Positions 513-56,617 of a stretch of DNA of 64,000 bases are shown one piece after another. The number at the start of each line of letters is the position of its first letter. Position 1 is the first letter of the stretch. The stretch is from Actinomycetes bacterium (lineage in GTDB: Bacteria > Actinomycetota > Thermoleophilia > BMS3ABIN01), in the NCBI GenBank assembly GCA_021790115.1, contig JAJYIM010000001.1, positions 23,543 to 87,542 of the forward strand, read 5' to 3'. The notes under the pieces are model-generated. The model searched no databases. It had not been told where the DNA came from and saw nothing but the letters and a program-made list of their open reading frames with translations. A program made the translations under genes and the position numbers.

Positions 513-1061
513 AAGGGTTGCGCCCACGCGCCGGCGGTTGCTAATGATCCTGGAATCTGGTGTAGACTTCATGCTATGGGCGTGGCAGATCGCCACAGCG
601 AGCGCGTCGGCGGCGTGGTCCGGCGCCGGCGCCTGCGGCAGGCCGAGCAGCACTTTCACCATCTGCTGCACCTGCGCCTTGCCGGCGCGCCCGTAGCCGA
701 CAACCGCCTGCTTGATCCTCAGCGGCGTGTAGTCAAAAGGCGCCAGCCCCCGCTCGGCGCAGGCAAGCACGGCCACGCCGCGGGCCTGACCGACAGAGAG
801 CGCGGCCTTCAGGTTCACACCGCCGAAAAGCTCCTCGATGGCAGCCGCCTGGGGCCGAAGGGCGTCGATAACCGCCAGCAGCTCCCGGTAAATTTGAAAA
901 AGGCGCTCATGCGGAACATCCCTTGCCGAAGTCACAATGGCTCCGTGCCCCACCAGCCGCGATTTGCCGTCCCCGTGGTCAATCACGCCCCAGCCGGTCG
1001 CCGCCGTTCCGGGGTCGATGCCCAAAACGCGGATGGTGGATTTCACAGGTTCAAAGTTCAA
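498..1061 (-). CDS. ruvC: crossover junction endodeoxyribonuclease RuvC
   Basis: Track ORF of 187 aa with RVLGIDPGTAATGWGVI and the RuvC catalytic layout. Start is non-ATG, either TTG at 1061 or GTG at ~1046. Sits directly upstream of ruvA in the conserved order. Confidence 0.85.
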   Translation of the reverse strand: MNFEPVKSTIRVLGIDPGTAATGWGVIDHGDGKSRLVGHGAIVTSARDVPHERLFQIYRELLAVIDALRPQAAAIEELFGGVNLKAALSVGQARGVAVLACAERGLAPFDYTPLRIKQAVVGYGRAGKAQVQQMVKVLLGLPQAPAPDHAADALAVAICHAHSMKSTPDSRIISNRRRVGATLDRFA

Positions 1062-1062
1062 G

Positions 1063-1140
1063 GTTCAAAGTTTTTATGGTTTTTGGTTTATCCAAAGTCC
1101 AGCATCCAGAGTCCACCATCCAGCATCCGCTTTTCTACCA
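1063..1140. repeat. heptamer-repeat intergenic element (family 1) copy
   Basis: Begins directly after the yebC stop. The minus strand reads TAG-AAAAGCGGATGCTGGATGGTGGACTCTGGATGCTGGACTTTGGATAAACCAAAAACC, i.e. (GGATGSY)n followed by GGATAAACCAAAAACC. The same architecture is seen at more than 10 other loci in this window. Confidence 0.6.
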
Positions 1141-7584: not shown

Positions 7585-7689
7585 GCCGCAAAACCTCCTC
7601 GAAATTACATAATCATCCTATCAAAAAACTGACAGCAGATGGATGCTTCCGGTTTCCGGTTTCAAAAAAATGGAGTGATTTTTTCATTT

Positions 7690-7760
7690 ATCAAGTTAAT
7701 TTTTGGTTTTTGGTTTTTATCCAGCATCCAGAATCCAGCATCCACCATCCGCTTTTACGG
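7690..7760. repeat. heptamer-repeat intergenic element (family 1) copy
   Basis: GGTTTTTGGTTTTTATCCAGCATCCAGAATCCAGCATCCACCATCCGCTTTT in the divergent pdxS / IMPDH-like intergenic region. Reverse complement gives (GGATGNT)n-GGATAAAAACCAAAAACC. Confidence 0.55.
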
Positions 7761-7883
7761 TTGACGCTGGTCCGTACAGGTTATAGCATCCGTCTAACCC
7801 GCAAGCGATAACAACAAGTTCAGGTTGTTTTATCTGGAATCTGGCATCCAGAATCCAGAGTGTGCATATGGAGGTTGGCTGGC

Positions 7884-9041
7884 ATGGAAGTAGAGATCGG
7901 ACGCGGCAAGAAAGGGCGGCGCGCCTACGGGCTGGACGATATCGCCATCGTCCCCAGCCGCAGGACCCGTGACATCGAGGACATAGACATCAGCTGGCAG
8001 TTGGGCCCGCACCAGCTGGGCATCCCCTGCCTGGCTTCGGCCATGGATGGCGTCGTTGATCCCAGGTTTGCCGTGACAATGGGCAAGATCGGCGGCATGG
8101 CGGTGCTCAACCTGGAGGGAATCCAGACCCGCTACCAGGATGCCGAGGGAGAATTGAAAAAGATCGCGGCCCTGCCGGTTGACCAGGCCACCCATGGCCT
8201 CCAGGAGATCTATCAGGAGCCGATCAAGGAAGAGCTCATAACACAAAAGATAAAGGAGATCAAGGACGGCGGCGTGCTGGCGGCGGCTTCGCTCACCCCG
8301 CAGAAAGTGACCCAATACTACCAGCTGGCTCTGGACGCCGGCCTGGATGTGCTCATCATCCAGGGGACGGTCGTCAGCGCCGAGCACGTTAGCTCCGTCG
8401 TGGAGCCGCTTAACCTGAAAAAGTTTATCGCCGAAGTGCCCCTGCCGGTAATTGTCGGCGGCTGCGCTTCTTACACCACAGCGCTCCACTTGATGCGCAC
8501 CGGCGCCGTCGGCGTGCTCGTCGGAGTCGGCCCCGGCGCCGCCTGCACCACCCGCGGCGTGCTTGGCATCGGCGTGCCCCAGGCAACAGCAGTGTCCGAC
8601 GCCTCCGCCGCCAGGGTGCAGCATCTGCTGGAGACGGGGCAGTACGTCAATGTCATCGCTGACGGCGGCATGCGCACCGGCGGCGACATCGCCAAGGCCA
8701 TCGCCTGCGGCGCCGACGGCGTCATGATCGGGTCGCCGCTGTCGCGCGCCTATGAAGCGCCCGGGCATGGCTATCACTGGGGCATGGCCACCTTTCACCC
8801 CCAGTTGCCGCGGGGCACGCGCGTGAAGACAAACCAGGTGGCTTCCCTGGAAGAGATCCTGGTCGGCCCGGCGCGCGAGAATGATGGCACCCTCAACCTG
8901 TTTGGCGCCCTTAAGACTTCACTTGCGACTTGTGGTTATGAAAATATCCAGGCTTTCCAGAAGGCGGAGGTAATGGTCGCGCCCTCCCTCCAGACCGAGG
9001 GCAAGAAGCTGCAGCGCGAGCAGGATGTGGGAATGGGGTAG
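7884..9041 (+). CDS. IMP dehydrogenase family protein lacking CBS domains (GuaB3-like)
   Basis: MEVEIGRGKKGRRAYGLDDIAIVPSRRTRD...GIPCLASAMDGV...GGCASYTTALHLMRTGAVGVLVG... is an IMPDH/GMPR TIM-barrel with no CBS pair. ATG at 7884 is internal to the track ORF (codon 9). Preceded by GGAGG. Confidence 0.8.
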   Translation: MEVEIGRGKKGRRAYGLDDIAIVPSRRTRDIEDIDISWQLGPHQLGIPCLASAMDGVVDPRFAVTMGKIGGMAVLNLEGIQTRYQDAEGELKKIAALPVDQATHGLQEIYQEPIKEELITQKIKEIKDGGVLAAASLTPQKVTQYYQLALDAGLDVLIIQGTVVSAEHVSSVVEPLNLKKFIAEVPLPVIVGGCASYTTALHLMRTGAVGVLVGVGPGAACTTRGVLGIGVPQATAVSDASAARVQHLLETGQYVNVIADGGMRTGGDIAKAIACGADGVMIGSPLSRAYEAPGHGYHWGMATFHPQLPRGTRVKTNQVASLEEILVGPARENDGTLNLFGALKTSLATCGYENIQAFQKAEVMVAPSLQTEGKKLQREQDVGMG

Positions 9042-9046
9042 TAAAG

Positions 9047-9080
9047 CGGGTGCTGGATTCTGGATGCTGGATTAAACCAA
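9047..9080. repeat. heptamer-repeat intergenic element (family 1) copy
   Basis: Follows the plus-strand stop directly: GCGGGTGCTGGATTCTGGATGCTGGATTAAACCAAAACC. Confidence 0.55.
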
Positions 9081-9118
9081 AACCAGCTTGACAAACAGCG
9101 GATAATCGATACTCTCTT

Positions 9119-9924: not shown

Positions 9925-9996
9925 TAAAAACCTATCTCAAAAGCATATTCTGCTGCGGCCGGCCTCGCTGCGAACAGCCTTTTGAGATAGATTCTA
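9925..9996. repeat. TIR hairpin element (family 2, MITE-like), copy A, inverted orientation
   Basis: CCTATCTCAAAAGCATATTCTGCTGCGGCCGGCCTCGCTGCGAACAGCCTTTTGAGATAGATTCTA. The termini CTATCTCAAAAG and CTTTTGAGATAG pair perfectly. The reverse complement matches copies at 42876 and 22997. Confidence 0.65.
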
Positions 9997-10067: not shown

Positions 10068-10160
10068 GCAGCGCCACAAAACCCCAAAACCGGATGATGG
10101 ATATTGGGTTGGTTTTGGGTTATCCAATGTCCAAAATCCAGCATCCAGCATCCGCTTTTC
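10068..10160. repeat. heptamer-repeat intergenic element (family 1) copy
   Basis: The minus strand, directly after the stop of the ASKHA gene, reads TAG-AAAAGCGGATGCTGGATGCTGGATTTTGGACATTGGATAACCCAAAACCAACCC... Confidence 0.55.
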
Positions 10161-14339: not shown

Positions 14340-14435
14340 CGGTTTCGGGTTGCGGGTTTCCCTGTTAACTAATACTCAGCCCGGTTCAAAACCTAAACCT
14401 GGTGTGTGAAAACCCGAAACCCGCAACCCGCAACT
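14340..14435. repeat. heptamer-repeat hairpin (GGTTTCG GGTTGCG GGTTTCC ... AAACCCG AAACCCG CAACCCG)
   Basis: Tandem 7-nt units, with an inverted copy 45 nt downstream, between the GT2 stop and the rSAM start. Confidence 0.5.
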
Positions 14436-17232: not shown

Positions 17233-17251
17233 ACAGGCTAAAAGCCTGTGC
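17233..17251. terminator. terminator-like hairpin CACAGGCT-AAAA-GCCTGTG, part of a 27-nt motif shared with 36421-36447
   Basis: Perfect 8-bp stem between convergent gene ends (17221 and 17274). The identical 27-mer TGCACAGGCTAAAAGCCTGTGCCTACC recurs at 36421. Confidence 0.55.
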
Positions 17252-17273
17252 CTACCAGCCTGTGCCTACCGCA

Positions 17274-22897: not shown

Positions 22898-22996
22898 AAA
22901 ACCTCAGTTTCTTGTTTGTGGTTTCTGGTTTCTGGTTCACCCACAAAAAAATCAACTCGAAACTGGAAGCTCGAAACTCGAAACTAAGAGCCTGCT

Positions 22997-23067
22997 GGGA
23001 TAGATTCTTAGAATCTATCCCAAAAGGCTGTTCGCAGCAGAACAGGCGTGCTGAGATAGATTCTAAG
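22997..23067. repeat. TIR hairpin element (family 2), copy C
   Basis: GGGATAGATTCT|TAGAATCTATCCC is a perfect 12+12 palindrome, followed by AAAAGGCTGTTCGCAGCAGAACAGGCGTGCTGAGATAGATTCTAAG. Between nadD and proA. Confidence 0.65.
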
Positions 23068-25489: not shown

Positions 25490-26773
25490 CTAAGCCGGGG
25501 TCGCCGACGGAGTACGGTCATTGGTCTGAGCCCGCTGGATATCAGCCCCCAGCGCCTGGAGCTTTTTCTCGAAGTTCTCGTAGCCGCGGTCAATGTGGCC
25601 TATCCGCCTGACCTCGGTTGTGCCCGCCGCCGCCAGGCCGGCCAGAACCAGGGCGGCGCCGGCGCGCAGGTCCGGAGTCTCAACAATGGCTCCCTCGAGC
25701 CGGCAGCCTCCATGCACGACGGCATGATGGCCGCTGGTGCGGATGTCGGCGCCAAGCCTGTTTATCTCATCAACAAATACAAACCGGTTCTCAAAGACGT
25801 TCTCGGTAACAATGCTATGCCCTTGCGCCAGCGACAGCAGCACCATCACCGGCGCCTGCAGGTCGGTGGGAAAACCCGGATGCGGCAGAGTGGCAATGTC
25901 GGCGCTGTGATATTTTTCCCCTCCCCGGCAGCGCACCTTATGGTCAAATTCCTTGATGTCAACACCGATGGCGCGCAGCTTGCTGATGAATATCTCCAGG
26001 TGCAGGGGATTGAAATCTTCAATGACGATGTCCCCGCCGGTGACGGCGGCGGCAGTCATGAAGGTCCCGGCCTCAATGCGGTCGGGCATGACCGTATGGG
26101 CGGCTCCCGCGAGCCCGTCAACCCCGTCAATAACGATCGTGTCAGAGCCGGCGCCGCTGATGCAGGCCCCCATGGAGGTAAGGAATTTGGCCAGGTCGAT
26201 GATCTCCGGCTCGCGGGCGGCCGATTCAATCACCGTGCGGCCCTTGGCCGTTACCGCGGCCATCATCAGGTTTTCAGTCGCGCCCACGCTGGGATATTGA
26301 AGGCAGATGATATCTCCGGTGAGGCCTGCCGCCGCTACGTTGATAAAGCCGTGCTCCACGTTGATGCTTGCCCCCAGCTTTTCCAGCCCGCTTAAGTGGA
26401 AATCAATTTTGCGCGGGCCGATATTGCAGCCGCCGGGCATGGCCACCCGCGCCCGTCCCAGGCGCGCCAGCAGGGGGCCCATCACAATTATTGAGGCGCG
26501 CATCTTGCGCACCAGCTCATAGGGGGCGGTGTGAGAGAGCTCCGCGCCGGGGTCAATTTCAACCCGGCCGTCCTCAAATGCCACCCCAGCTCCCAGTTCC
26601 CTCAGCACTTCCGCCATCGTCAGGACATCCTGAATCCACGGCACGTTGTAAAGCACTGTTTTTTCCTGGGCGAGGAGTGAGGCGGCCATCAGTTTCAGGG
26701 CAGAGTTCTTGGCCCCCGATACACTGACGTTGCCCGCCAGCGGTATGCCGCCATTGATCAAAAAAGATTTCAT
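25490..26773 (-). CDS. murA: UDP-N-acetylglucosamine 1-carboxyvinyltransferase MurA
   Basis: MKSFLINGGIPLAGNVSVSGAKNSALKLMAASLLA... from the internal ATG at ~26772 (codon 23 of the track ORF). The enolpyruvyl transferase fold follows. Confidence 0.9.
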   Translation of the reverse strand: MKSFLINGGIPLAGNVSVSGAKNSALKLMAASLLAQEKTVLYNVPWIQDVLTMAEVLRELGAGVAFEDGRVEIDPGAELSHTAPYELVRKMRASIIVMGPLLARLGRARVAMPGGCNIGPRKIDFHLSGLEKLGASINVEHGFINVAAAGLTGDIICLQYPSVGATENLMMAAVTAKGRTVIESAAREPEIIDLAKFLTSMGACISGAGSDTIVIDGVDGLAGAAHTVMPDRIEAGTFMTAAAVTGGDIVIEDFNPLHLEIFISKLRAIGVDIKEFDHKVRCRGGEKYHSADIATLPHPGFPTDLQAPVMVLLSLAQGHSIVTENVFENRFVFVDEINRLGADIRTSGHHAVVHGGCRLEGAIVETPDLRAGAALVLAGLAAAGTTEVRRIGHIDRGYENFEKKLQALGADIQRAQTNDRTPSATPA

Positions 26774-26774
26774 A

Positions 26775-26888
26775 AAACAGATTCTGGATTCTTGATGCTG
26801 AATGCTAGATAAAATATAACCAAAGTTCAGGACATTCAACCCGAAAGGTGATATCTACCATCTACCATCCGCCATCCACCATCCGCTC
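26775..26888. repeat. heptamer-repeat intergenic element (family 1 variant) between atpC and murA
   Basis: Minus strand after the atpC stop: TAA-GAGCGGATGGTGGATGGCGGATGGTAGATGGTAGAT.... The plus strand carries CTGGATTCTTGATGCTGAATGCT at the other end. Confidence 0.5.
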
Positions 26889-27311
26889 TTATCGTCCGGC
26901 GACCTTGAGCCGGTTAAGCGCCCGCCGGCGGGACTGCTCGGCCCGGTGAACATCCACGCCCACGACCTCATGGGACTTCGCCAGCCAGCGCTCAGCCCGC
27001 TCAACAGCGGCCTGCGCCCGCACCGTGTCGATATCCACTGCCTTCTCAGCCGTATCCACAAGCAGCAGCAGGCGGTCAAACTGCATCTTTACATAGCCGT
27101 TGCCCGCAGCCAAATGTTCCCAATGACCGTCATCGAAGTGTTTGATGCGGGCCTCGCCGATCACCGTCTTGGACACAATCGGCGCATGCCTCGGCAGAAT
27201 GCCCAGCTCACCCATCTCACCCGGCACAACCACCATGGCGACCTCGCCGCTTACCAGCAGCCCTTCCGGCGTCACTATCTCGCATTTGAGCTTAACGCTA
27301 TTTTCTTCCAT
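26889..27311 (-). CDS. atpC: F0F1 ATP synthase subunit epsilon
   Basis: MEENSVKLKCEIVTPEGLLVSGEVAMVVVPGEMGELGILPRHAPI... ATG at 27311; the track ORF begins 4 codons earlier at TTG. Confidence 0.85.
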   Translation of the reverse strand: MEENSVKLKCEIVTPEGLLVSGEVAMVVVPGEMGELGILPRHAPIVSKTVIGEARIKHFDDGHWEHLAAGNGYVKMQFDRLLLLVDTAEKAVDIDTVRAQAAVERAERWLAKSHEVVGVDVHRAEQSRRRALNRLKVAGR

Positions 27312-27338
27312 GCCAGCCTGCAACTTTCCTTCCCGCCG

Positions 27339-28916
<1,578 letters not shown>

Positions 28917-29810
28917 TTACCCCAATGCTTCCGCCCCGGCAACGACTTCGAGAATGTCCTGCGTGATTGCCGCCTGGCGGGCCTTGTTCATCGCCAGGGT
29001 AAGTTTTTCAATCATTTCTTCCGCGTTTTCCGAGGCGTTGCGCATCGCGGTCATGCGGGCCCCGTGCTCGGAAGCGGTGGATTCCAAAAGAGCGCGGTAG
29101 ATAACATTATCGACGTAGCTGGGAAGCAGCCCCTGGAGAATGGCGCTGGCGCTGGGCTCGTAAATAAAGTCGCCCTCAAGCCGCCGTTCCTCCTCGGACA
29201 CTTCGGGCTCGGTGGTGACGACTTCCTCGCCCAGGGGCAGGATCACCTCTTCGGTCACCATCTGTTCCATAGGAGATTTGAAATGGTTGTAAACCAGGTA
29301 GACCCGGTCTACATCGCCGGAGACATATAGTCTAACAATCCGATGGGCAATGTCCTCGGCGTCGGTGAACTTGGGGCGGTCGGTGATGCCGGTAATCGCC
29401 TCTCTCACCTCGAAGCCGCGAAAGCGCATCGTGCCCACCCCTTTCCTGCCGATGGCGGCCCAGACCACGCCCTTGCCTTCCGCCCGCGCCTGATCATGAA
29501 GGCCCAGCGAGTGCCTGATGATGTTGGCGTTAAAAGCGCCGGCCAGGCCGCGGTCGCCGGTCAGCATGATAATGGCGACGGCCTTCTCTTCATCGTGAAC
29601 GTCAAGGAGGGGGTATTGCTCGCCGCCTTCAGTGTGCTTGGCAACTTCCTGCATCAGCTCCATCATCCGCTCAGCATACGGCCTGAGCGCCTCAATCCGC
29701 GCCTGGGCGCGCCTGAGCCGCGCCGCGGCGACCATCTCCATCGCCTTTGTCGTCTTGCGCGTATTTTTGACCGAATTGATTCGGCGTGCTATATCGCGAA
29801 ATGCTGCCAT
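28917..29810 (-). CDS. atpG: F0F1 ATP synthase subunit gamma
   Basis: MAAFRDIARRINSVKNTRKTTKAMEMVAAARLRRAQ... 297 aa. Confidence 0.9.
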   Translation of the reverse strand: MAAFRDIARRINSVKNTRKTTKAMEMVAAARLRRAQARIEALRPYAERMMELMQEVAKHTEGGEQYPLLDVHDEEKAVAIIMLTGDRGLAGAFNANIIRHSLGLHDQARAEGKGVVWAAIGRKGVGTMRFRGFEVREAITGITDRPKFTDAEDIAHRIVRLYVSGDVDRVYLVYNHFKSPMEQMVTEEVILPLGEEVVTTEPEVSEEERRLEGDFIYEPSASAILQGLLPSYVDNVIYRALLESTASEHGARMTAMRNASENAEEMIEKLTLAMNKARQAAITQDILEVVAGAEALG

Positions 29811-29874
29811 AAATCAGATGGTGGCTGCCAGCTGGTAGATGGTTGATTCCATAAGTCTGATTGCGGTCCTTTCT

Positions 29875-31455
29875 TTAAGCCGTTGCCGGTCCGGCTTCGG
29901 CTGCTGCGGCCGCCGGCACATTCAGATCCTCATGGTCGGGCTGGAAGTCTTTCAGGGCTGACTCCAAGGCGGCGCGCAGCTTGGCGTCGGTATCATCAGA
30001 GATGTCCTTTTCATCCCTGATGGCGGTCAGGATCTCCGCATGCTGGCTGCGCAGCCTGGCAATCAGCATCTCGTTGAAGTCGGGCACGCGGTCGACATCG
30101 ATGCTGTCGAGATAACCCTGCGTGGCCGCGAAAATCACCGCCACCTGTTCCTCGACCGGCACCGGAGCGTACTGGCCCTGGTTGAGCGCCACGACCATGC
30201 GTTCGCCGCGAGCGAGCTGAGCCTGTGTCGCAGCATCCAGCTCCGAGCCGAACTGGGCGAAAGCCTTCAGCTCGTTGTACTGGGCCAGGTCGAGCCGGAG
30301 CTTGCCGGCGACCTTCTTCATCGCCTTAATCTGGGCATCACCGCCGACGCGGCTTACCGAGATGCCGACATTGATGGCCGGCCGCACGCCGGAATAGAAC
30401 AGATCGGGCTCGAGGAAGATCTGGCCGTCGGTGATCGAGATGATGTTGGTCGGGATGTACGCCGACACGTCACCGGCCTGCGTCTCAACGACCGGCAGCG
30501 ACGTGATTGAGCCGCCGCCGAGTTCGTCCGACAGCTTCACGCCGCGCTCCAGCAACCGTGAATGCAGGTAGAAGACGTCGCCGGGATAGGCTTCGCGCCC
30601 TGGCGGCCTCCTCAGCAGTAGCGACATCTGGCGATAAGCGTCGGCGTGCTTGGTCAGGTCGTCGTAGACGCACATGGCTTCGCCGCCCTTGTAACAGAAA
30701 TATTCAGCCATGGCGGTGCCCACGTATGGCGCCATAAACTTTAGCGGCGCCCGTTCCGAGGCCGAAGCCATCACAACGATGGTGTAGTCCATGGCGCCTT
30801 TCTCTTCCAGTTTGGCGACGACGCTGGCAACGTTTGATGCCTTCTGGCCGATGGCCACGTAAATGCAGATAACACCCTGGCCCTTCTGATTGATGATCGC
30901 GTCGATGGCGATGGCGGTCTTGCCCGTGCGGCGGTCGCCGATGATCAGTTCGCGCTGGCCGCGGCCGATGGGGATCATCGAGTCGATCGATTTGATACCC
31001 GTCTGCAGCGGCGTACTCACGTGCTGCCGGGCGATGACGCCTGGGGCCTTGAACTCGACCGGCCGGTACTCGGCGGCCTCGATCGGGCCCTTGTCGTCGA
31101 TGGGACGCCCGAGGGCGTTGACCACACGGCCGACCAGTGCTTCTCCGACCGGCACGCTCATGACGCGGCCCGTGCGCTTGACGATGTCGCCCTCGGCGAT
31201 GAGTGTGTCCTCGCCCATCAGCACGACGCCGACGTTATCCTCTTCCAGGTTCAGCGCCAGACCCACGACGTCGTGGGGAAACTCCAGCATCTCCGAGGCC
31301 ATTGCCTTCTCCAGGCCGTGGACGCGGGCGATACCGTCGCCGACCTCGAGAACGCGGCCGACCTCTTCCACTTCGACCTCGGCCTCGTAGTTCTCAATCT
31401 GGCTCTTGAGAACCGCGGTAATTTCTTCAGGGCGCAGTTTCAAAGCTATCCTCAC
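29875..31455 (-). CDS. atpA: F0F1 ATP synthase subunit alpha
   Basis: GDRRTGKT (P-loop). 526 aa with a C-terminal acidic extension. Confidence 0.95.
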
Positions 31456-31503
31456 TCTCCTGTTTGTCCGGGGACATAATTGAAAATGTCCCCCGAAAAA
31501 TAA

Positions 31504-32040
31504 TTACGCCTGCACGAGCCTGGCGCGCAGCTGCGCGAGCTTCGCCTTCAGGCTTCCGTCCACAATCACGTCGCCGATCCTGAGGATCAGCCCGCCGACG
31601 ATGTCCTTGCTGACAGTCGCATTCATCTCAATCTTTTTGCGGGTTGCTTCCTCAATCCGGCGTCTTATCTTTGCCCGGGTCTCCTCCGGCAGCTCCACGG
31701 CCGAGACAATCTCGACCTCTACCACCTTGTTCGCCTCCCGGAGCAGGCGGGCAAACCCCTCCTGGACATCCGGGATTAAATCGGCGTGGCGTTTGTCAAT
31801 CAGCAGGTTGAGCCCGTTGACAAAGATCCGGTCTCCGCCCTCCGTCAGCTCCGCCACGATCTGCTTTTTCTTCAGCGAGCTGATCTTGGGATTATAAAGC
31901 ACCGCCGTCAGGTCGCGGGACCCTCGCATGGCGTCAACAAAAGCGGCCAGGTCGGCGCCGGTGGCGCCGAGCGTGCCGGCATCTTCCGCGGCTGCGAAGA
32001 GGGCCCGGGCGTAAACGTTTGCTATCCGCGAGTCGGCCAA
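31504..32040 (-). CDS. atpH: F0F1 ATP synthase subunit delta
   Basis: MADSRIANVYARALFAAAEDAG... 178 aa, OSCP family. Confidence 0.85.
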   Translation of the reverse strand: MADSRIANVYARALFAAAEDAGTLGATGADLAAFVDAMRGSRDLTAVLYNPKISSLKKKQIVAELTEGGDRIFVNGLNLLIDKRHADLIPDVQEGFARLLREANKVVEVEIVSAVELPEETRAKIRRRIEEATRKKIEMNATVSKDIVGGLILRIGDVIVDGSLKAKLAQLRARLVQA

Positions 32041-32043
32041 GCC

Positions 32044-32565
32044 TTACTTCCCTCCCGCGCCCAACTGGTCGAAATCTACCTCCGCCATCGCCTCATCAAC
32101 AAGGCGAAGATGATCTTCCTTCGTGATCACCTTGCCCGCAACCTTGCCTGCCGCCAGGATGGTCAGATCCGCCACCTGGTCCTTGATTTCCTGGACCGCT
32201 TTGCGGGTCTCGCGCTGGATTTGCTCGCGGGCGCTCTCGACTTCCTTATGCGCGTGGGCTTTTGCCTCGCCGACAATCTCGGCCTTTTGATCATCGCCCA
32301 CCTTGCGGGCGCGGTCGAGAATCTCCTCGGCCTCGTTTTTGGCGTCGGTGATGCTCTGGCGGTATTCGCTCAGCAGCCGGTCGGCCTCATGCCTGGTTTC
32401 CTCTGCCGCCTTGATGCTGGTCTCAATCGCGTTGCGGCGCTCGTCGATGATCTTTTGCAGCGGGCCGAAGGCATACCTCTTCAGAACGTAGAGCAGGACC
32501 CCGAAAGTGATCAGGGTGTATATCATTAGTCCAGGTTGTATAGTCAGCATTGTGCTTGTGGGCAC
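32044..32565 (-). CDS. atpF: F0F1 ATP synthase subunit b
   Basis: N-terminal TM helix, then a long charged coiled-coil (ERRNAIETSIKAAEETRHEADRLL...). Confidence 0.85.
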   Translation of the reverse strand: MPTSTMLTIQPGLMIYTLITFGVLLYVLKRYAFGPLQKIIDERRNAIETSIKAAEETRHEADRLLSEYRQSITDAKNEAEEILDRARKVGDDQKAEIVGEAKAHAHKEVESAREQIQRETRKAVQEIKDQVADLTILAAGKVAGKVITKEDHLRLVDEAMAEVDFDQLGAGGK

Positions 32566-32617
32566 CTCCTAACCGTCAGGGACGGGCGCGCCACTGCGGG
32601 CGCGCCACCGAAAAACT

Positions 32618-32940
<323 letters not shown>

Positions 32941-33768
32941 CTAATGTTCCTGGTGGATTGCTCCACCGATGTAAACCGCCGACAGAATGGCGAAAATGTA
33001 AGCCTGGATCAGGGCTACGAAAATCTCAAAGGCGCTGACCATGAGCACGCCGGCCTCCAGCGGCAATATCAGCACGGCGATGGCGTAGCTCTGGATCATC
33101 AGGATCATGGCGTAAAAAACAAGCAAAACCAGGTGCCCGGCCGCCAGGTTGGCAAAAAGCCGGACTGACAATGAAACCAGGCGGAATACCTCGCTGATTC
33201 CGTGCAGGAAAAAAAGCACCTGCTTCAGCACCGGCGGCGCCGTTGACGGCATCCAGCCCTTAAAGTAGCCGACGATCCCGTTGGCCCGCATGCCGGAAGC
33301 GTGCGTCGCCACAAAAGTAATCCCCGCCAGCGCTATGGTCACATTAATGTTGGCCGTCGCGGCGTAAGTCTTGAACTCAGGGATGTTATGAAAACCGGGC
33401 GCCAGGTTAAACGGCAGCGGGACGAGCCCGATGATATTACTGATCAGGATGAAAAGAAACAGGCTGGCAATGTACGGGAACCAGGCCGCCGCGGCGCCGC
33501 CGGGCATGACCGCGCCCACGAGCACGTCCCGCACATATTCATACAGCCCCTCGAATGCGGTCTGTTTACGGTTCGGGAGCACGCGGGCAGCCTTTGAGAT
33601 GCCGATACAGATCAGCGCCGTCAGCGCCGCCCCAATGAACAGGTAAAGGACCACTTTGTTGATTGACATATCGACCGGGCCGAGGTGAAACTCGAGGTGA
33701 TGGCCGCCGATATCAACCGGCTTCAGCGCATCGGTAAATTCATCAGCCGGATTAAGCTGCGCGCTCAC
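32941..33768 (-). CDS. atpB: F0F1 ATP synthase subunit a
   Basis: 275 aa, polytopic, with the conserved Arg region (...LSVRLFANLAAGHLVL...). Confidence 0.9.
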   Translation of the reverse strand: MSAQLNPADEFTDALKPVDIGGHHLEFHLGPVDMSINKVVLYLFIGAALTALICIGISKAARVLPNRKQTAFEGLYEYVRDVLVGAVMPGGAAAAWFPYIASLFLFILISNIIGLVPLPFNLAPGFHNIPEFKTYAATANINVTIALAGITFVATHASGMRANGIVGYFKGWMPSTAPPVLKQVLFFLHGISEVFRLVSLSVRLFANLAAGHLVLLVFYAMILMIQSYAIAVLILPLEAGVLMVSAFEIFVALIQAYIFAILSAVYIGGAIHQEH

Positions 33769-36299: not shown

Positions 36300-36480
36300 A
36301 ATCTTCCCGGGAGATGGCAGGCTTCCTTTACGCGCATGCCCAGTAGATGGCAGGCTTGGTAGATGGCAGGCTTTTAGCCTGCCTTTGGGAGACTTCCTTT
36401 ACGCACAACACGCCCTCATCTGCACAGGCTAAAAGCCTGTGCCTACCGTCGTTTGAAGCGGGCTAAAGCCTGTGCCTGTG
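36300..36480. repeat. complex intergenic repeat block: 3x GATGGCAGGCTT, 2x CTTCCTTTACGC, hairpins GGCAGGCT-TTTA-GCCTGCC and CACAGGCT-AAAA-GCCTGTG
   Basis: Seen directly. Contains the same 27-mer as 17231-17257. Lies between the dCMP deaminase start and the end of the repeat-protein gene. Confidence 0.6.
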
Positions 36481-36481
36481 C

Positions 36482-38680
36482 CTAGTTTAGCACCGTCCCC
36501 AGCACCTCATTAAAGTAGCCGTTGTAAAGGACGCGCTGGGAAGCAATAACGTTGCCGCTGGCGCTTACCTCGACCGGGCCGCCCATCTTGCCGGAGAAGG
36601 TGGGAGTTGCGTTCTTTCCCGGGGCGATTGTGTAGGTGCCTATGGCAGTGCTGCCCAGCTTGATAGTTGCGGTAACTGCAAACGGGTTCGGGTTGGCGAT
36701 AAGCACCCAGTTTTGCATGCCTGGGCTTTGCTGGTCATACCAGGTCCAGTTGTAATCTGAGGTTAGCGCTGAGTAGCCGCCGTCAGTGGAGGCCGCCAGG
36801 CCCGGCACCTCTTCAAAGGAGGGGCCGAAGATCGAGCGCTGGGTGGCGATCACCTTGGCGCCCCCGTCGGTCCAGACTTCCACCGGGCCGCCCATCACGC
36901 CCGGGAAGGTGGGCGTGACATGCTGGCCGGGGCCGATCCGGTAGCTGCCGCGGAGAGCGCCGGCAATCTTGATATGGGCTGTTACCGCGCTTGCATTTGG
37001 ATTGGCGACAAGCACCCAGTCGGTGGCGCCGGCAGAGGCGTTGTCGTACCAGGTCCAGAGGTAATGGTCGGAAAGCTCCGCCGCCGGGATGCCGGGCACC
37101 TCGTTAAAGGCGGAGCCGTAATTGGAGAGGACCCGCTGGGAGGCAAGCACGTCCCCGCCGCTGGCGATAACCTCAACCGGGCCGCCCATCTTGCCGGAGA
37201 AGGTGGGAGTCACTTTTGCTCCCGGGGCGATGGGGCCGCTCCAGACAGGGACGCCGGCAATCTTGACCATGGCCGTTACCGGGCCCTGGGGATTGCCGTT
37301 ATGATCCTGGCCGGGGTTGGCCACAAGCACCCAGTTGGTCATCCCCGGGCTTTGCTGGTCGTACCAGGTCCAGTAGAAATGGCTGGAGAGCCGGCCCGCA
37401 TCGGTGCCGGGCACCTCTTCCATGGAGCTTCCCCCCTTGGGCCAGAGGCTGCGCTGGCTGAGGATGCCGCCGCCGGGCGCCCAGGTGACGGCTTTTACCG
37501 GGCCGTTCATGACCCCCGGAAAGACGGGAGTGATGGAGCGCCCCGGAGCGACAACGCCATTGTTATAGCCGGCGAGGCTCATGGCCCTGCCGCCAATGGA
37601 AAGCTGGGAGGTAACCAGGCTGCCCGGGGCCGAAGCCGGATTGGCGATCAGCACCCAGTTGCTGCCGCCGACATCATCGTACCAGGTCCAGTAAGAAGTG
37701 TTCGTGGTGGCAAGAATGGTGCCGCCATCACCCGCCACCCAGCCATGGCTCTGGTCCACGAAGCTGACGCCTTCAAATTTGTCAGCTGAGCCGCTCGTCT
37801 GGGGGCTCCAGGTAGCGCCGCCGTTTGTGGTGGCAAGAATGGTGCCGCCGCCCGTGCCGCCGCCCATCGCCACCCCGCCCCCAACTGCCCAGCCGTGGTT
37901 TTGGTCAACGAAGCTGACGCCTACAAGCGTATTGGCCGTGCCACTGGTCTGGGGACTCCAGGTAGCGCCGCCGTTTGTGGTGGCAAGAATGGCGCCGTTC
38001 GTACCCACGGCCCAGCCGTGGTTTTGGTCTGTAAAGCTAACGTCAGCAAGCCAGTTTGTCGTGCCGCTTGCCTGGGAGGTCCAGTGGGCGCCGCCGTCGG
38101 TAGTCGCAAGAATGGTGCCTCCGTAGCCCACCGCCCAGCCGTGGTTTTGGTCGAGGAAGAAGACGCGGTAAAGATCATTGGTCGTGCCGCTCGTCTGGAG
38201 GCTCCACCCGGCGCCGCCGTTGTTAGTTACAAGAATGGTGCCGTTAGCACCCACTGCCCAGCCGTGGTTTTGGTCCACGAAGCTGACGCCGTAAAGCAAA
38301 TTGGTGGTGCCGGTTGCCGCAGAGCTCCACCCGGCGCCGCCGTTGTTAGTTACAAGAATGGTGCCGTTAGCACCCACTGCCCAGCCGTGGTTTTGGTTCA
38401 GGAAAAAGACGCGGTAAAGATCATTGGTCGTGCCACTCGTCTGGGGGCTCCAGGTAGCGCCGCCGTTTGTGGTGGCAAGAATGGTGCCGCCGGGCCCCAC
38501 CGCCCAGCCGTGGTTCTGATCCACGAAGCTGATAGAATAAAGATCGCTCGTGGTGCCACTGGTCTGGGGACTCCAGGTAGCCGCCATTGACATTGAAGGA
38601 AAAACTGCCAGCGCCAGAAATGCTGCCGCCATTGCCGGTAGTAAAAACAACATCCGCGGCGTAAAGACTCTCTTCATCAC
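36482..38680 (-). CDS. secreted protein: Ycf48/BNR-like beta-propeller (7 repeats) fused to 4 copies of the ~100-aa WTWYD repeat
   Basis: Signal peptide MMKRVFTPRMLFLLPAMAAAFLALAVFPSMSMA. Seven repeats of the form ATWSPQTSGTTxDLYxVxFxDQNHGWAVGxxGTILxTxNGG (PSII stability/assembly factor-like propeller), then YWTWYD...NWVLIANP...FEEVPG repeats. The C-terminus ends NGYFNEVLGTVLN, identical to the 2222 protein. Confidence 0.7.
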   Translation of the reverse strand: MMKRVFTPRMLFLLPAMAAAFLALAVFPSMSMAATWSPQTSGTTSDLYSISFVDQNHGWAVGPGGTILATTNGGATWSPQTSGTTNDLYRVFFLNQNHGWAVGANGTILVTNNGGAGWSSAATGTTNLLYGVSFVDQNHGWAVGANGTILVTNNGGAGWSLQTSGTTNDLYRVFFLDQNHGWAVGYGGTILATTDGGAHWTSQASGTTNWLADVSFTDQNHGWAVGTNGAILATTNGGATWSPQTSGTANTLVGVSFVDQNHGWAVGGGVAMGGGTGGGTILATTNGGATWSPQTSGSADKFEGVSFVDQSHGWVAGDGGTILATTNTSYWTWYDDVGGSNWVLIANPASAPGSLVTSQLSIGGRAMSLAGYNNGVVAPGRSITPVFPGVMNGPVKAVTWAPGGGILSQRSLWPKGGSSMEEVPGTDAGRLSSHFYWTWYDQQSPGMTNWVLVANPGQDHNGNPQGPVTAMVKIAGVPVWSGPIAPGAKVTPTFSGKMGGPVEVIASGGDVLASQRVLSNYGSAFNEVPGIPAAELSDHYLWTWYDNASAGATDWVLVANPNASAVTAHIKIAGALRGSYRIGPGQHVTPTFPGVMGGPVEVWTDGGAKVIATQRSIFGPSFEEVPGLAASTDGGYSALTSDYNWTWYDQQSPGMQNWVLIANPNPFAVTATIKLGSTAIGTYTIAPGKNATPTFSGKMGGPVEVSASGNVIASQRVLYNGYFNEVLGTVLN

Positions 38681-42647: not shown

Positions 42648-42875
42648 CAAGCTTCCTCCTTGGGTTTTTCCTCCCGGCCGGAGCCGTCCACGGCCCCGGC
42701 AAGGGCGGGAATGTCTTTCTGAGCGGGACGTTCGACTTTCAGCCGCCGGGGATGAAACATTGCCAGTATATATTATTTTCATGCTGGAGGACTCCCGCTT
42801 CAGCCGGCGGCAGGCGCAGGCCTCCAGGCCTGTGCAGACGCGGATCTCCCCAATTTAGAGTCAGCGGCACAGCCC

Positions 42876-42966
42876 TAAGAATCTATCGCAAAAGGCTGTT
42901 CGCAGCGAGGCCTTTGCAGCCGGCCGCAGCAGAATATGCCTTGAGATAGATTCTAAACGACGCTTC
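42876..42966. repeat. TIR hairpin element (family 2), copy B (longest)
   Basis: TAAGAATCTATCGCAAAAGGCTGTTCGCAGCGAGGCCTTTGCAGCCGGCCGCAGCAGAATATGCCTTGAGATAGATTCTAAAC. The terminal inverted repeats are GAATCTATC...GATAGATTC. Confidence 0.65.
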
Positions 42967-43597: not shown

Positions 43598-43694
43598 GTT
43601 CCGGGTTTCACGTTCCGGGTTCCGAGTGAAATTATAACGATTATTGACTATTTGTCAGGTTGCCTCTATGAGTTTGGAGTTAACCAGCATCCAG

Positions 43695-43718
43695 AATCCG
43701 CTTGATAGGCGTACGTTC
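43695..43718. promoter_or_regulatory. candidate LexA operator (SOS box): perfect palindrome ATAGGCGTACG-TT-CGTACGCCTAT overlapping a TATAAT -10
   Basis: Seen directly, 50 nt upstream of the lexA start. Core GTAC-N4-GTAC (CGTACGTTCGTACG) resembles the CGAAC-N4-GTTCG / GTAC-N4-GTAC LexA boxes of Gram-positives and Cyanobacteria. TATAAT sits at 43716-43721. Confidence 0.5.
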
Positions 43719-43766
43719 GTACGCCTATAATGTTTTTCCCCACAGGCGGCAAAAACCGCTCTCACT

Positions 43767-44339
43767 ATGGGCATAACGAAATCGCCAAAACATTTCGACA
43801 AGATCGTCGCCTTTTACCGGGCCCACCGGCGCATGCCCAGCCACGCCGAGATCGCCGGGCTGCGCTCCAAGGGAAGCACGTACAAGCTGGTGAACCGGCT
43901 GGTGTCGCTGGGCCTGGTGGAGCGGGACGGAAAGGGGAGGCTGCTGCCCGGGAGCAGGTTCCTGAGCCTGTCGCAACTGGGCACAGTGGAGGCCGGCTGG
44001 CCCTCGCCCGCCGAAGAGGAACTGCCGGACACGATGAGCCTGGAAGAGTTCCTCATCGTGCGGCCGGACAGCACCTTCATCCTCAAGGTGCAGGGCGACT
44101 CGATGGTCGAAGCGGGGATCATGCCGGGCGACATGGTCCTGGTGGAGCGGGGCGTGCGCGAGAAGGACGGCGACATCATCATCGCCGAGGTTGACCGCGA
44201 GTGGACCATGAAGTACTACCGGAGGAAGAACGGCAAAGTCTGGCTGGAGGCAGCCAACAACAAGTACAAACCCATATATCCGCGGCAGGAGCTCCGCATT
44301 GCCGCCGTGGTCAAGGCGGTCATCCGCAAGTACTTGTAG
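43767..44339 (+). CDS. lexA: transcriptional repressor LexA
   Basis: N-terminal wHTH (HAEIAGLRSKGSTYKLVNRLVSLGLVERDG) and the S24 peptidase (GDSMVEAGIMPGDMVLVER...K). 190 aa. Confidence 0.9.
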   Translation: MGITKSPKHFDKIVAFYRAHRRMPSHAEIAGLRSKGSTYKLVNRLVSLGLVERDGKGRLLPGSRFLSLSQLGTVEAGWPSPAEEELPDTMSLEEFLIVRPDSTFILKVQGDSMVEAGIMPGDMVLVERGVREKDGDIIIAEVDREWTMKYYRRKNGKVWLEAANNKYKPIYPRQELRIAAVVKAVIRKYL

Positions 44340-45694: not shown

Positions 45695-45699
45695 AAAAC

Positions 45700-45738
45700 G
45701 GATTCTGGGTTCTGGGTTCTGGGTTCTGGGTTCTGGAT
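45700..45738. repeat. perfect tandem heptamer (GGTTCTG)5 / (CCAGAAC)5
   Basis: GGATTCTGGGTTCTGGGTTCTGGGTTCTGGGTTCTGGATAA, seen directly in the 100-nt spacer. Confidence 0.7.
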
Positions 45739-45797
45739 AATTTTCAATTTAAGAATTATTTGAAACGGCCGGCTCGGCAGTGATTCTTTTTTCCAAA

Positions 45798-48604: not shown

Positions 48605-48789
48605 GTCAAAATGGTTTCCGGTTTCCTGTCTTCAAAAAAATTACGATATTCCGCTAAGGCAAAATTAATTAGGAATCTTCCTCTCACAATTTAAATTGCT
48701 AACCATATAACCCACTCAGGAAGCTCGTGGATGGGGCTGAGCGAAGCGATATCCAACGGCAGTGCCATTCCGGCAGCTAATTCTCAATC

Positions 48790-48850
48790 ATTTTTGGTTT
48801 TCGATGGGTTTATCCACCATCCACGATCTACCATTGTCTGCTTCATGCCA
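48790..48850. repeat. heptamer-repeat intergenic element (family 1) copy
   Basis: Minus strand after the DUF1385 stop: TGA-TGGCATGAAGCAGACAATGGTAGATCGTGGATGGTGGATAAACCCATCGAAAACCAAAAATG. Confidence 0.5.
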
Positions 48851-50758: not shown

Positions 50759-50922
50759 TTTCCCTCTCAATTTTAAGTGACAAGAAATAATAACAAAAAC
50801 CGGACTCCGGATGCTAGACACTGGATGGCGGATAAACCCAAATCTCCAAATTTCTAATATCTTCCCGTTGAGGCTGAGCCGGCCATCCCACCTTTGTTTG
50901 TTTCTGCTATCCTGAAAATACG

Positions 50923-51522: not shown

Positions 51523-51653
51523 CCAGCGATTCAAATCAAACCCTTGCCCCGCCAAAATGCGGTGTCTAAAATACTGCTAATGTGAGATTTGAAATTATCA
51601 CCTGAACGCTGGATATTGAACGATCCAAAGTCCAATATCCAAACTCGGTTATC

Positions 51654-51731
51654 GGGCGATTAGCTCAGCTGGTTAGAGTGCTGCCCTCACATGGCAGAGG
51701 TCACTGGTTCGAGTCCAGTATCGCCCACCAA
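51654..51731 (+). tRNA. tRNA-Val (anticodon CAC), CCA encoded
   Basis: Manual cloverleaf: GGGCGAT/ATCGCCC acceptor, GCTC-AGCTGGTTA-GAGT D arm, CTGCC-CTCACAT-GGCAG anticodon arm, TTCGAGT T-loop, then ACCA. Confidence 0.88.
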
Positions 51732-51788
51732 ACTCGTCTTATTGGAACTTTTCGAGAGTAGTGGAGTTACCTCGTTTCTGTTGACACT

Positions 51789-52148: not shown

Positions 52149-52254
52149 TCCCAGGGCGGTTCAACCAGCTATGCGTATGGACAGTTCATCAAGAACGAAT
52201 TCGAGAACTCCGCTTGTGCATCTCAATCAGACTCTTTGCCGCTCAGCTCGAACT

Positions 52255-54574: not shown

Positions 54575-54714
54575 GTGGCCGACATGGCCTACGCGGCGAC
54601 GGCAGACCTGATTGCTGCTGCCCGCGCTGGTTCCGGCTGAAAAGCGGCCGCAGCCATGGGCGGTTCTGCCCAGGATATATTGAAATAATTTATCAGTTAT
54701 GATATTTTATTGCT

Positions 54715-56574: not shown

Positions 56575-56617
56575 ACCAATAAGCAAAATTAACAGAGAGT
56601 GGCATCTGGCAAACATA

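Follow-up and report, generated by a model that had tools for sequence, protein, structure and literature searches.

We describe here the arrays of seven-nucleotide (7-nt) tandem repeats that occupy spacers between genes in a 64-kb stretch of contig JAJYIM010000001.1 (hereafter the window) from an Actinomycetes bacterium, assembly GCA_021790115.1. They lie beside atp genes, murA, prfA, ruvC and others, and about 15 of the 44 spacers across the window bear them. We are confident that the arrays are intergenic heptanucleotide simple-sequence repeats, of the class described as long simple sequence repeats (LSSRs) or short tandemly repeated repetitive (STRR) sequences. We also lean, with much less assurance, towards a composite explanation in which slippage has produced a lineage-specific bloom of heptamers, the inverted pairs of which are used as RNA stem-loops. 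Array counts and spacer statistics refer to the window, of which 8.5 kb (13%) is non-coding, and about 30 of its open reading frames (ORFs) were scanned against Pfam. The arrays, with their strand, predicted folding free energy (dG) and folding z-score where these were obtained, are as follows.

1049-1069, minus strand: (TTTGAAC)3 running up to the GTG start of ruvC, without a Shine-Dalgarno sequence.
1070-1089, minus strand: (AAAAACC)-like A/C-rich stretch, AAACCAAAAACCATAAAAAC, within the remainder (1042-1089) of the yebC-ruvC spacer.
1090-1134, minus strand: G/T-rich array after the yebC stop codon TAG (1135-1137), read from the sequence, with yebC named by Pfam; AAAAGC followed by GGATGCT GGATGGT GGACTCT GGATGCT GGACTTT GGAT.
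7635-7663, minus strand: (GAAACCG)2 + GCATCCATCTGC, a short C-type partner of the G-array at 7719-7756.
7698-7756, minus strand: AAAAGC(GGATGNT)5 then (AAAAACC)3, in the divergent pdxS/IMPDH-like spacer, with no preceding stop codon.
7833-7859, plus strand: small hairpin of heptamer units, TCTGGAATCTGG-CAT-CCAGAATCCAGA, lying upstream of the IMPDH-like gene.
9042-9084, plus strand: TAAAGC + GGGTGCT GGATTCT GGATGCT GGAT + TAAACCAAAACC, directly past the IMPDH-like stop codon TAG (9039-9041); a single, non-folding array (z -0.2) in a convergent spacer.
10077-10159, minus strand: inverted pair directly past the RACo/ASKHA TAG (dG -30.4, z -2.9); AAAAGC(GGATGCT..)5, loop, (AATATCC ATCATCC)GG, then UUUUGGGGUUUUG.
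14341-14434, plus strand: inverted pair (GGTTTCG)3 ... (AAACCCG)3-4 in the GT2/radical-SAM spacer (z -4.9).
22898-22985, minus strand: inverted pair (AGTTTCG)4 ... (AACCAGA)4-5, ending GAGGTTTT at the nadD ATG (proA-nadD spacer, z -7.0).
26774-26888, minus strand: hairpin across the entire atpC-murA spacer (z -3.6). Its 5′ arm, GAGC(GGATGGT)4-5, starts immediately past the atpC TAA, and its 3′ arm, (AGCATTC AGCATCA AGAATCC AGAATCT)GTTTT, lies against the murA ATG (26771-26773), without a Shine-Dalgarno sequence; the murA leader ends ...AGAATCTGTTTT-ATG (all on the minus strand).
28813-28836, minus strand: third array, of degenerate C-type units (AAGATCC AAAATCT AGTATCT), which continues into the Shine-Dalgarno sequence of atpD.
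28845-28916, minus strand: near-perfect hairpin past the atpG TAA (dG -39.1, z -7.0); (GGATATT/GGATGTT)4 GGATG, loop, CATCC(CCTATCC AACATCC AATATCC).
29811-29843, minus strand: C-type array (ACCATCT ACCAGCT GGCAGCC ACCATCT)GATTT against the atpG ATG, without a Shine-Dalgarno sequence.
32871-32940, minus strand: atpB-atpE inverted pair (z -4.0); 5′ arm TAAAGC(GGATGCT GGAGACT GGATGCT GGATTCT)GGAT, 3′ arm CC(ACCATCC ACCATCT GCCATCC ACCATCT)GG.
43598-43624, minus strand: (CGGAACC)3-like array against the start codon of a Sua5/YrdC-like gene.
43684-43703, minus strand: AAGC GGATTCT GGATGCT GG, two weak units in the divergent Sua5/LexA-like spacer.
45695-45739, minus strand: (CCAGAAC)5 + CCGTTTT against the prmC ATG, without a Shine-Dalgarno sequence; a perfect array of 4.9 copies (100% matches in Tandem Repeats Finder, TRF), unstructured (z +1.05).
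48605-48626, minus strand: (GGAAACC)2 + ATTTTGAC against the prfA ATG.
48789-48832, minus strand: G-type array (GGTAGAT CGTGGAT GGTGGAT) with an AAACCC..AAAACC tail, 12-19 nt past the DUF1385 stop codon.
50807-50847, plus strand: degenerate G-type array CCGGATGCT AGACACT GGATGGC GGAT + AAACCCAAATCTCC, in the thyX/h199 divergent spacer.
51608-51644, plus strand: small GGATATT-type hairpin just upstream of tRNA-Val.

A period of 7 or 14 was found in about 30 of the 56 TRF rows for the window, and in a lag-autocorrelation scan strict arrays occurred solely at lags of 7 and 14. With the threshold relaxed, non-coding sequence contained 17 of the 19 lag-7 arrays (binomial p=1.5e-13), against a mean of 0.2 and a maximum of 3 in shuffled spacers; arrays at lags 6, 9 and 12 were mostly coding, as expected of repeats that are codon multiples. 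The arrays are thus head-to-tail 7-nt repeats of at least two to three copies, beyond chance, with a strong non-coding bias. An earlier reading of this DNA (the initial annotation) had listed GGAT-type 7-nt units at a series of loci and arrays of other units near 14340, 22900 and 45700; sequence reading and TRF found the former at every locus and all three of the latter. Several unit types coexist in the window (GGATGCT, GGATGGT, GGATATT, GGTTTCG, AGTTTCG, GGGTTCT, TTTGAAC and CCAGAAC), and the 79 GGAT-type units have the consensus R-G-A-T-N-N-T, with 1.2, 1.8, 1.5 and 1.35 bits at positions 1-4, 0.26 and 0.12 at positions 5-6 and 0.77 at position 7, the conservation of RGAT being somewhat inflated by the setting of the register on GGAT. 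The yebC-ruvC spacer (1041-1134) is composed wholly of heptamer arrays; taken alone it is unfolded (z +1.9), and a pairing of its G-array (1090-1134) with the first ruvC codons, ATCCACCATCCGC (1029-1041), is possible and not significant (z -1.28).

Arrays are present in 15 of 33 core spacers vs none of the 11 that follow tRNA-Val (Fisher p=0.008). This last 12 kb of the window (51731-64000) has a lower GC content, and it encodes an integrase-core fragment (51789-52148), a DUF4143 AAA ATPase, an AbiEi/AbiEii toxin-antitoxin pair and a P-type ATPase. The integrase fragment, the DUF4143 ATPase, the AbiEi/AbiEii pair and the lower GC content suggest that it is probably an acquired island.

The arrays are laid out with a fixed polarity. 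The G/T-rich arm (RGATNNT; elsewhere GGTTTCN, GGGTTCT or AGTTTCG) has its 5′ end against the upstream stop codon, and the C/A-rich arm comes second, often with its 3′ end against the next start codon. G-type arrays lie past the stops of yebC, the IMPDH-like gene, RACo, atpB, atpG, atpC and the DUF1385 gene, and C/A-type arrays against the starts of ruvC, murA, atpG, Sua5, prmC, prfA and nadD; the lone GGGTTCT array (45695-45739) is C-rich on the sense strand. Where both arms are present they give an imperfect stem-loop that spans the spacer, and such inverted pairs are found in at least six window spacers: the RACo 3′ end, GT2/radical-SAM, proA-nadD, atpC-murA, atpG-atpD and atpB-atpE. Six spacers with paired arrays fold strongly (z -3.6 to -7.5), and single-array spacers are less structured than their own shuffles (z>0). 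There are two groups of arrays, one paired and strongly folding, the other unpaired and without structure; across spacers, lag-7 score and folding z-score were uncorrelated (rho -0.21, p=0.24). In the atpG-atpD hairpin a GTT/AAC variant is mirrored in register between the arms. A recognisable Shine-Dalgarno sequence is missing at six of the seven starts that arrays abut (prmC, ruvC, murA, atpG, prfA and Sua5), while nadD adjoins an array yet carries GAGG; other window genes use GGAGG.

This layout changes much of the detail in the initial annotation. The fixed tail given there, GGATAAACC[AC]AAAACC, is 16 nt long and occurs exactly at 1078-1093 alone, with two more sites at two mismatches; an A/C-rich tail with indels allowed is present at about 6 of the 12 loci and absent from the atp hairpins, and where present it is itself a heptamer array, (AAAAACC)n. 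The GGAT units, said to begin 0-3 nt past the stop, were measured at 4-9 nt, and at 12-19 nt for DUF1385, the element 0-1 nt past the stop being a linker: TAG-(A/T)AAAGC at yebC, RACo, the IMPDH-like gene and atpB, and GAGC at atpC. Placement right after stops stands for several genes, and 4 of the 12 loci (7690-7760, 7832-7858, 43662-43692 and 50800-50850) lie between divergent genes. The placing of GGAT on the coding strand is uninformative for the inverted pairs at 10077-10159, 26774-26888, 28845-28916, 32871-32940, 7833-7859 and 51608-51644, since in an inverted pair of arrays the GGAT orientation holds on either strand. About half of the "copies" recorded are the two arms of inverted pairs, and about half of the arrays are at gene 5′ ends, the C/A-rich, start-abutting arrays having escaped record. 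An argument that a 7-nt period excludes helical phasing has no bearing on an RNA or slippage explanation. The arrays had further been held to be something other than random simple sequence, and they are indeed far from chance, confined to spacers, polar and stop-adjacent, with some strong stem-loops; they are nonetheless slippage-type simple-sequence DNA of a described class. What lies here is such a described repeat class rather than a new and specific 3′-end element.

Comparison with relatives shows how quickly these spacers change. The atpG product matches metagenome-assembled genomes labelled Actinobacteria or Thermoleophilia, and the synteny of GT4, the atp operon, murA, proBA and nadD is conserved in the relatives fetched. 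Arrays number 19 per 64 kb in the window, 6 per 21 kb in relative L001 and 4 per 12 kb in L172, and L171 is also positive; these array-bearing relatives are 86-96% identical in atpG (L171 closest, at 96%). Heptamer arrays were not found in L173 (81% atpG identity), L002 (77%) or L004 (74%). Between atpG and atpD there is a hairpin of GGATATT units in the window and one of AGTTTCT units in L001, L171 has ACGTTTC units there, and the L172 spacer is 36 nt only; the atpA-atpG spacer has (ACCATCT)n in the window vs (ACATCCA)3 in L171, and the atpB-atpE arm types are alike in the window and L172. Orthologous spacers retain some array with other units or lengths, or have none, and the change between relatives at 86-96% atpG identity, a comparison above strain level, is a wholesale turnover rather than one of single-unit steps. 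The idea of a single element family, (GGATGCT)n-GGATAAACCAAAACC, fails on this turnover of units and copy numbers among relatives and on the differing units among the window's own spacers. Absence from close relatives had been named as the observation that would reduce the arrays to slippage noise, and half of it was found: the same spacers keep arrays, with different sequences, and there are none at atpG identities of 81% or less.

The atpC-murA spacer has a stop-to-start hairpin in four genomes (window, L172, L001 and L173; z -3.6, -6.8, -3.8 and -2.9), with differing arm sequences, and it folds weakly in L002 and L004. This hairpin is predicted to be markedly more stable in the sense than in the antisense strand (-37.6 vs -18.4 kcal/mol in the window, -49.9 vs -23.0 in L172, -41.7 vs -36.7 in L001 and -33.9 vs -25.8 in L173) because of G.U pairs, which number 5, 9, 5 and 3 in the sense strand vs 1, 1, 1 and 2 in the antisense strand of the same four genomes. 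In the modelled folds, this sense-strand asymmetry in G.U pairs is the sole direct sign of RNA-level selection.

Within the atpC-murA hairpin loop (window 26812-26849; L172 8430-8445; L173 9362-9377) there is also an extended -10 box that resembles a promoter; L172 and L173 have the same sequence, CTGGTAGAATTGA, and the window has TTGAAT...TGGTTATATT. A transcript from this box would bear only the C/A-rich arm as its murA leader, and murA is without a Shine-Dalgarno sequence in any genome compared. In L171 (472-609) the (ACATCCA)3 array comes to within a few nt of the codons for the atpG N terminus; ATA stands at the position aligned with the window's atpG ATG and the gene caller picked a later ATG, so that either a non-canonical start is used or the start has been disturbed by the array.

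Heptamer arrays with much of this character have been reported before. Rehm et al. (2015) described intergenic (GGGANTN)n, or GGGAATC, repeats in Xanthomonas and GGGGA(C/T)T repeats in Nostoc PCC 7120, 89-93% of them intergenic and mostly of 3-6 copies, lying on average 28 nt from the 5′ neighbouring ORF vs 160 nt from the next (PMC4692102). The G-rich array is on the coding strand downstream of an ORF and on the non-coding strand upstream of one; there are 70-75 convergent inverted pairs per genome (about 40%), with stem-loop potential; and sister species have the same spacers occupied by arrays of differing length and sequence, with no function found (PMC4692102). Our arrays share the 7-nt units, the usual number of 3-6 copies, the intergenic bias, the G-strand 5′ end near an ORF, the strand rule, the frequent convergent inverted pairs (at least six window spacers), a conserved core with variable unit positions, the association with housekeeping genes and the same-spacer-different-sequence pattern. 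They differ from those of Xanthomonas in that RGATNNT and GGNTTYN units have GG only, which makes a three-tetrad G-quadruplex unavailable, and from both systems in their uncultured anaerobic actinobacterial host, in the several unit types per genome and in arms that often run from stop to start. A G-quadruplex reading was accordingly rejected, the units having no G3 tracts.

As summarised in PMC4679880 and PMC4692102, Mrazek et al. (2007) surveyed LSSRs of 5-11 nt units, heptanucleotides being the most abundant long class in many genomes, with a sporadic distribution across phylogeny, Actinobacteria among the richest and polymerase slippage proposed as their source; and Mazel et al. (1990) reported cyanobacterial STRR heptamers. 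Calothrix heptanucleotides are also cited in PMC4692102. The same summaries describe neither a stop-to-start hairpin layout nor an AAAGC linker for these repeats. MacGregor (2015) reported TAACTGA direct repeats in marine Beggiatoaceae, cyanobacteria and Bacteroidetes, directly upstream of starts lacking a ribosome-binding site and at housekeeping genes, and proposed a translational role; in BOGUAY nearly all sets were direct repeats, 1 of 170 being inverted (PMC4679880). A Nostoc preprint gives (TTCAAAA)3 and (GAC(C/T)AAT)8 upstream of recF and recO (10.1101/2022.06.06.494920). The (CCAGAAC)5-prmC, (TTTGAAC)3-ruvC, (GGAAACC)2-prfA and (CGGAACC)3-Sua5 arrays have the same position before the start as TAACTGA; unlike it, the window also has other units, common inverted pairs and stop-side arrays. 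Our literature searches found no later work that settles heptamer repeat function. What is new here is the host lineage and the unit spectrum; the repeat class itself is published.

The layout extends well beyond this lineage. A genome-collection scan with the pattern (TGGATNN)3TGGAT, which itself selects for TGGAT units and has a chance expectation of about 1, found at least 120 matching stretches in Cyanobacteria, Bacteroidota, Verrucomicrobiota, Acidobacteriota, Chloroflexota, Planctomycetota, Gemmatimonadota and others. Among the matches listed (120 loci), ORF boundaries lie closer to the 5′ end of the array than to its 3′ end (medians of 27.5 and 119 nt; 49:13; p=5e-6), the former distance being much like the 28-nt average of Rehm et al., and across all of these listed loci G-then-C pairs outnumber C-then-G pairs by 19:1. 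Many TGGAT-type arrays among those listed (L006-L125) are directly flanked by arrays of different heptamers, e.g. CTCATTA, GCGGATT, CCCGAGG, CTTCTGA, CTCTTCG and GGGTTTT, with tens of copies in L022, L024, L063 and L104; composite multi-unit spacers like that at 1041-1134 are therefore common elsewhere.

A metagenome scan with AAGCGGATGNTGGATGNTGGA gave 45 stretches, some of them chance matches in coding regions (L144, L149, L161 and others), and about 25 (GGATGTT)n elements in soil contigs. The soil elements have the form [stop]A(0-3)AAGC(GGATGTT)3-4, loop, (AACATCC)3-4 G(C)TTTT, with an ATG directly after in some; the 5′ linker was fixed by the search pattern, and what is independent is the 3′ side and the adjacency to stop codons. 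One soil contig is Bryobacteraceae-like (Acidobacteriota), so that the end motif AAAGCGGATG...CATCCG(C)TTTT is found in both Actinomycetota and Bryobacteraceae-like Acidobacteriota. The orthologous soil loci L148 and L155 are one 7-nt unit apart in each arm, with flanks near-identical save for scattered substitutions, and this difference points to whole-unit change in which the arms change together. Variant units clearly mirror each other in register between the arms at atpG-atpD and in L096, and do not clearly do so in L035, L054 and L152.

We suggest that replication slippage in 7-nt steps would create and remodel the arrays on resident DNA over time, and that the arms may be kept alike by hairpin-templated (quasi-palindrome) correction, by selection, or by both. 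The inverted pairs could then act in the transcript as 3′-end or intercistronic stem-loops, those at operon ends being terminator-like or exonuclease-blocking. Because the stop and start lie at the two feet of the stem, we further propose that the hairpin may block access to the initiation region that follows, or make translation there depend on that of the upstream gene: a ribosome terminating upstream would melt the base of the stem and expose the next start, which would otherwise be occluded. Single C/A-rich arms, being incapable of self-pairing, could provide structure-free leaders without a Shine-Dalgarno sequence. An RNA stem-loop function for the paired subset, judged from predicted folds, is a suggestion we hold tentatively and with more doubt than belief. 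Its nearest known counterparts are intrinsic terminators and the stabilising stem-loops of 3′ UTRs and intercistronic regions, as in operons with selective RNA processing and stabilisation (PMC4423207, PMC8219983), which the hairpins resemble in lying directly past a stop, at an operon end (atpC) and between cistrons for a heteromultimeric complex (atp), in the A-run and T-run flanks of some copies and in the sense-strand G.U pairs of atpC-murA. They are unlike terminators in their long stems of tandem units (20-35 nt per arm) with periodic mismatches, which are not GC-rich and which a canonical scan leaves uncalled. The initial annotation's notion of a terminator surrogate is still a live reading for the inverted pairs, given that atpC-murA is more stable in sense in four genomes, though not one that the terminator scan bears out.

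Several observations weigh against a function for the hairpins in RNA. The form expected of an intrinsic terminator, a GC-rich stem of about 5-14 bp with a 3-8 nt loop and then a U-tract, is not that of the heptamer hairpins; a simple intrinsic-terminator scan of the window calls none of them, a U-run follows only the RACo, murA and nadD hairpins, and the window shows no clear enrichment of canonical terminators (28 vs 22.2, 26 vs 19.7, 27 vs 25.6). The Shine-Dalgarno deficit beside arrays (1/7 vs 21/55) is not significant (p=0.40). Hairpins other than atpC-murA are equally stable on both strands, a symmetry that a DNA-level or purely mutational origin fits equally well. The atpB-atpE pair has a C.C mismatch in every unit in two genomes, the window and the orthologous L172 element, which is not what one would expect if stem stability were under selection. 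Positions 5-6 of the unit vary freely, RGAT and the final T being conserved; neither neutral decay nor plain stem selection predicts this uneven conservation, which hints at sequence-specific recognition. The empty L172 atpG-atpD spacer indicates that the hairpin is dispensable there. The C.C mismatch, the RGAT core and the dispensability in L172 point instead to a neutral by-product or to a factor that reads the sequence, and termination, processing and translational coupling at the hairpins, drawn as they are from predicted structures, are unproven proposals.

The first alternative is that the arrays are slippage-prone junk in tolerant spacers, the hairpins arising from quasi-palindrome template switching, and the whole functionless; we think this unlikely, though it deserves serious weight. 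It would account for the fast turnover of units, lengths and presence among close relatives, including the empty L172 spacer, for the array-free relatives at 81% atpG identity or less that share the same operons, for the lack of arrays in recently acquired DNA and for the change by whole units between L148 and L155. Published studies, moreover, detected no function and refer to polymerase slippage as a hypothetical reason why 7-nt units are favoured (PMC4692102, PMC4679880). What it leaves to be explained is the strict polarity (19:1 and 49:13 among the matches listed), the uneven conservation within RGATNNT, the placement of arrays precisely at stop and start codons and not at arbitrary points within spacers, and the atpC-murA hairpin, kept in four genomes with G.U pairs biased to the sense strand. 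At the opposite extreme, G-arm-first inverted arrays might be a pan-bacterial, actively maintained class of cis-elements and not mere slippage products, acting either as a stem with the upstream stop and a start without a Shine-Dalgarno sequence at its two feet, which would give structure-gated translational coupling or re-initiation, or as sites that a conserved factor recognises every 7 nt. This is improbable, and we keep it open because of the 19:1 polarity, the RGATNNT core, the end motif in two phyla and the joint one-unit change of the arms.

We give little credence to the arrays being protein-binding sites, in which a DNA- or RNA-binding factor would recognise the conserved (T)GGAT, or in the other arm AUCC, every 7 nt; it might be ribosomal protein S1 or a Csp-type or CsrA-type protein, as proposed for TAACTGA repeats, or else a nucleoid protein or regulator. 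The conserved RGAT and final T with free positions 5-6, like the Xanthomonas logo GGGANTN (PMC4692102), would suit such a reader, as would the C.C mismatch in both atpB-atpE orthologues, which suggests arms not optimised for pairing, and MacGregor's proposal of S1, Csp or CsrA binding to pre-start heptamers (PMC4679880). Unrelated-looking units, however, occur at the same positions (GGTTTCG, AGTTTCG, GGGTTCT, TTTGAAC and CCAGAAC) and orthologous spacers swap unit type, which makes a single reader protein unlikely; the GGA motifs of the paired elements lie in stems and not in loops, unlike CsrA targets, and a candidate binding protein was not identified.

In the predicted fold, the atpB-atpE C-arm pairs with the atpE Shine-Dalgarno sequence. 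GCUGGAU, a rotation of the main unit, would correspond to the segment of actinobacterial 16S rRNA that immediately precedes the anti-Shine-Dalgarno on its 5′ side, and the anti-Shine-Dalgarno itself is presumably resembled by ACCAUCC of the C-arm. This likeness is probably coincidental, because other unit types fill the same positions.

It is very unlikely that the arrays are small non-autonomous mobile elements inserting beside stops, of the kind of repetitive extragenic palindromes (REPs), their paired forms (REPINs) or hairpins like miniature inverted-repeat transposable elements (MITEs). Among the extragenic palindromes known as REPs, REPINs and bacterial interspersed mosaic elements (BIMEs; PMC2817692, PMC8266576), REPs are discrete conserved palindromes of 20-40 nt, mobilised by the REP-associated tyrosine transposase RAYT, and our arrays are like this group as abundant, extragenic, hairpin-forming repeats found after genes and in inverted pairs. 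Orthologous sites may be filled or empty (an approximately 75-nt atpG-atpD hairpin in the window vs the 36-nt spacer of L172, with a different hairpin in L001), several copies have the common ends TAG-(A/T)AAAGCGGATG ... CATCCGCTTTT, the end motif recurs in Bryobacteraceae-like soil contigs, and the window also has a conventional palindromic family of about 75 nt abutting TAG stops. Unlike REPs, these are tandem-unit arrays of variable length in which only the unit and the (A/T)AAAGC linker are common to copies, the loops being unrelated and the arm lengths differing by whole units. A target-site duplication was not seen at the filled vs empty atpG-atpD site; the many unit types would need many families; a single-unit change in both arms is slippage-like and not transposition-like; and RAYT was not seen among the approximately 30 window ORFs compared with Pfam, these not being every ORF of the window. 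The MITE/REP reading was rejected, since the arrays are not discrete conserved copies with defined ends.

Independent small RNA genes lying after genes, for example GGA-rich sponge RNAs, as the initial annotation had allowed, are highly implausible: the repeated GGA motifs are superficially like those of CsrB/RsmZ-type sponges, but Rfam at the gathering threshold (window) and at E<=1 (26700-33000) matched two tRNAs and nothing else, a canonical promoter scan of the window does not call the heptamer elements, no promoter-plus-terminator unit of their own was seen in a layout where they fill the stop-to-start space inside operons (atp) and leave no room for a promoter, and their sequence is not conserved between close relatives. 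The CsrA sponge was rejected, its GGA motifs being in stems, with no Rfam match and with elements that fill operon spacers.

Other repeats were observed in the window. A second, palindromic family of about 75 nt is found at 9925-9995, 22985-23063 and 42870-42953, and in part near 18982, with the sequence TAGAATCTATC[TC]CAAAAGGCTGTTCGCAGC...GCTGCGAACAGCCTTTTGAGATAGATTCTA and a 12-mer core that has 7 matches vs 0.24 expected; its members fold strongly (-33 to -48 kcal/mol), their first three bases being the TAG stop at proA and Sua5, and the family looks REP- or MITE-like. A perfect 24-nt palindrome, ATAGGCGTACGTTCGTACGCCTAT (43705-43728), lies 40 nt upstream of a LexA-like S24 peptidase gene (43767-44339) and overlaps the window's best promoter-like match (TTGATA-18-TATAAT, 11/12); from its sequence and position it is likely to be the operator of that gene. 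A tandem repeat of 123-nt period (37884-38581; 5.7 copies, also scored at 246/369 nt, 76-79% identity) lies inside a 732-aa ORF (36482-38680) for an unannotated protein, giving a 41-residue protein repeat. Exact two-copy direct repeats of 14 and 16 nt are present in spacers at 17243-17270 and 36343-36373 (AGCCTGTGCCTACC x2; GTAGATGGCAGGCTTG x2), the first of them next to a hairpin, CACAGGCT...AGCCTGTG, in the spacer of a convergent gene pair; GCACAGGCACAGGCT, which is similar, comes after the stop codon of ORF 36482-38680.

Reports since 2007 have ranked heptanucleotides first in abundance among the long simple repeats of many bacterial genomes, with neither function nor mechanism established, and the present lineage is a compact and unusually clear case, in which whole spacers in essential operons (atp, murA, prfA, ruvC) consist of strictly polar repeats. 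If the RNA signal is not true, then a strong lineage-specific mutational process is reshaping these spacers, and can mislead motif finders and repeat-based element predictors. If it is true, the repeats would be a cheap and quickly evolvable source of terminator-like or coupling stem-loops and of leaders free of a Shine-Dalgarno sequence, and this would bear on how the starts of genes and the ends of operons are annotated in uncultured Actinomycetota, Acidobacteriota, Cyanobacteria and other phyla.

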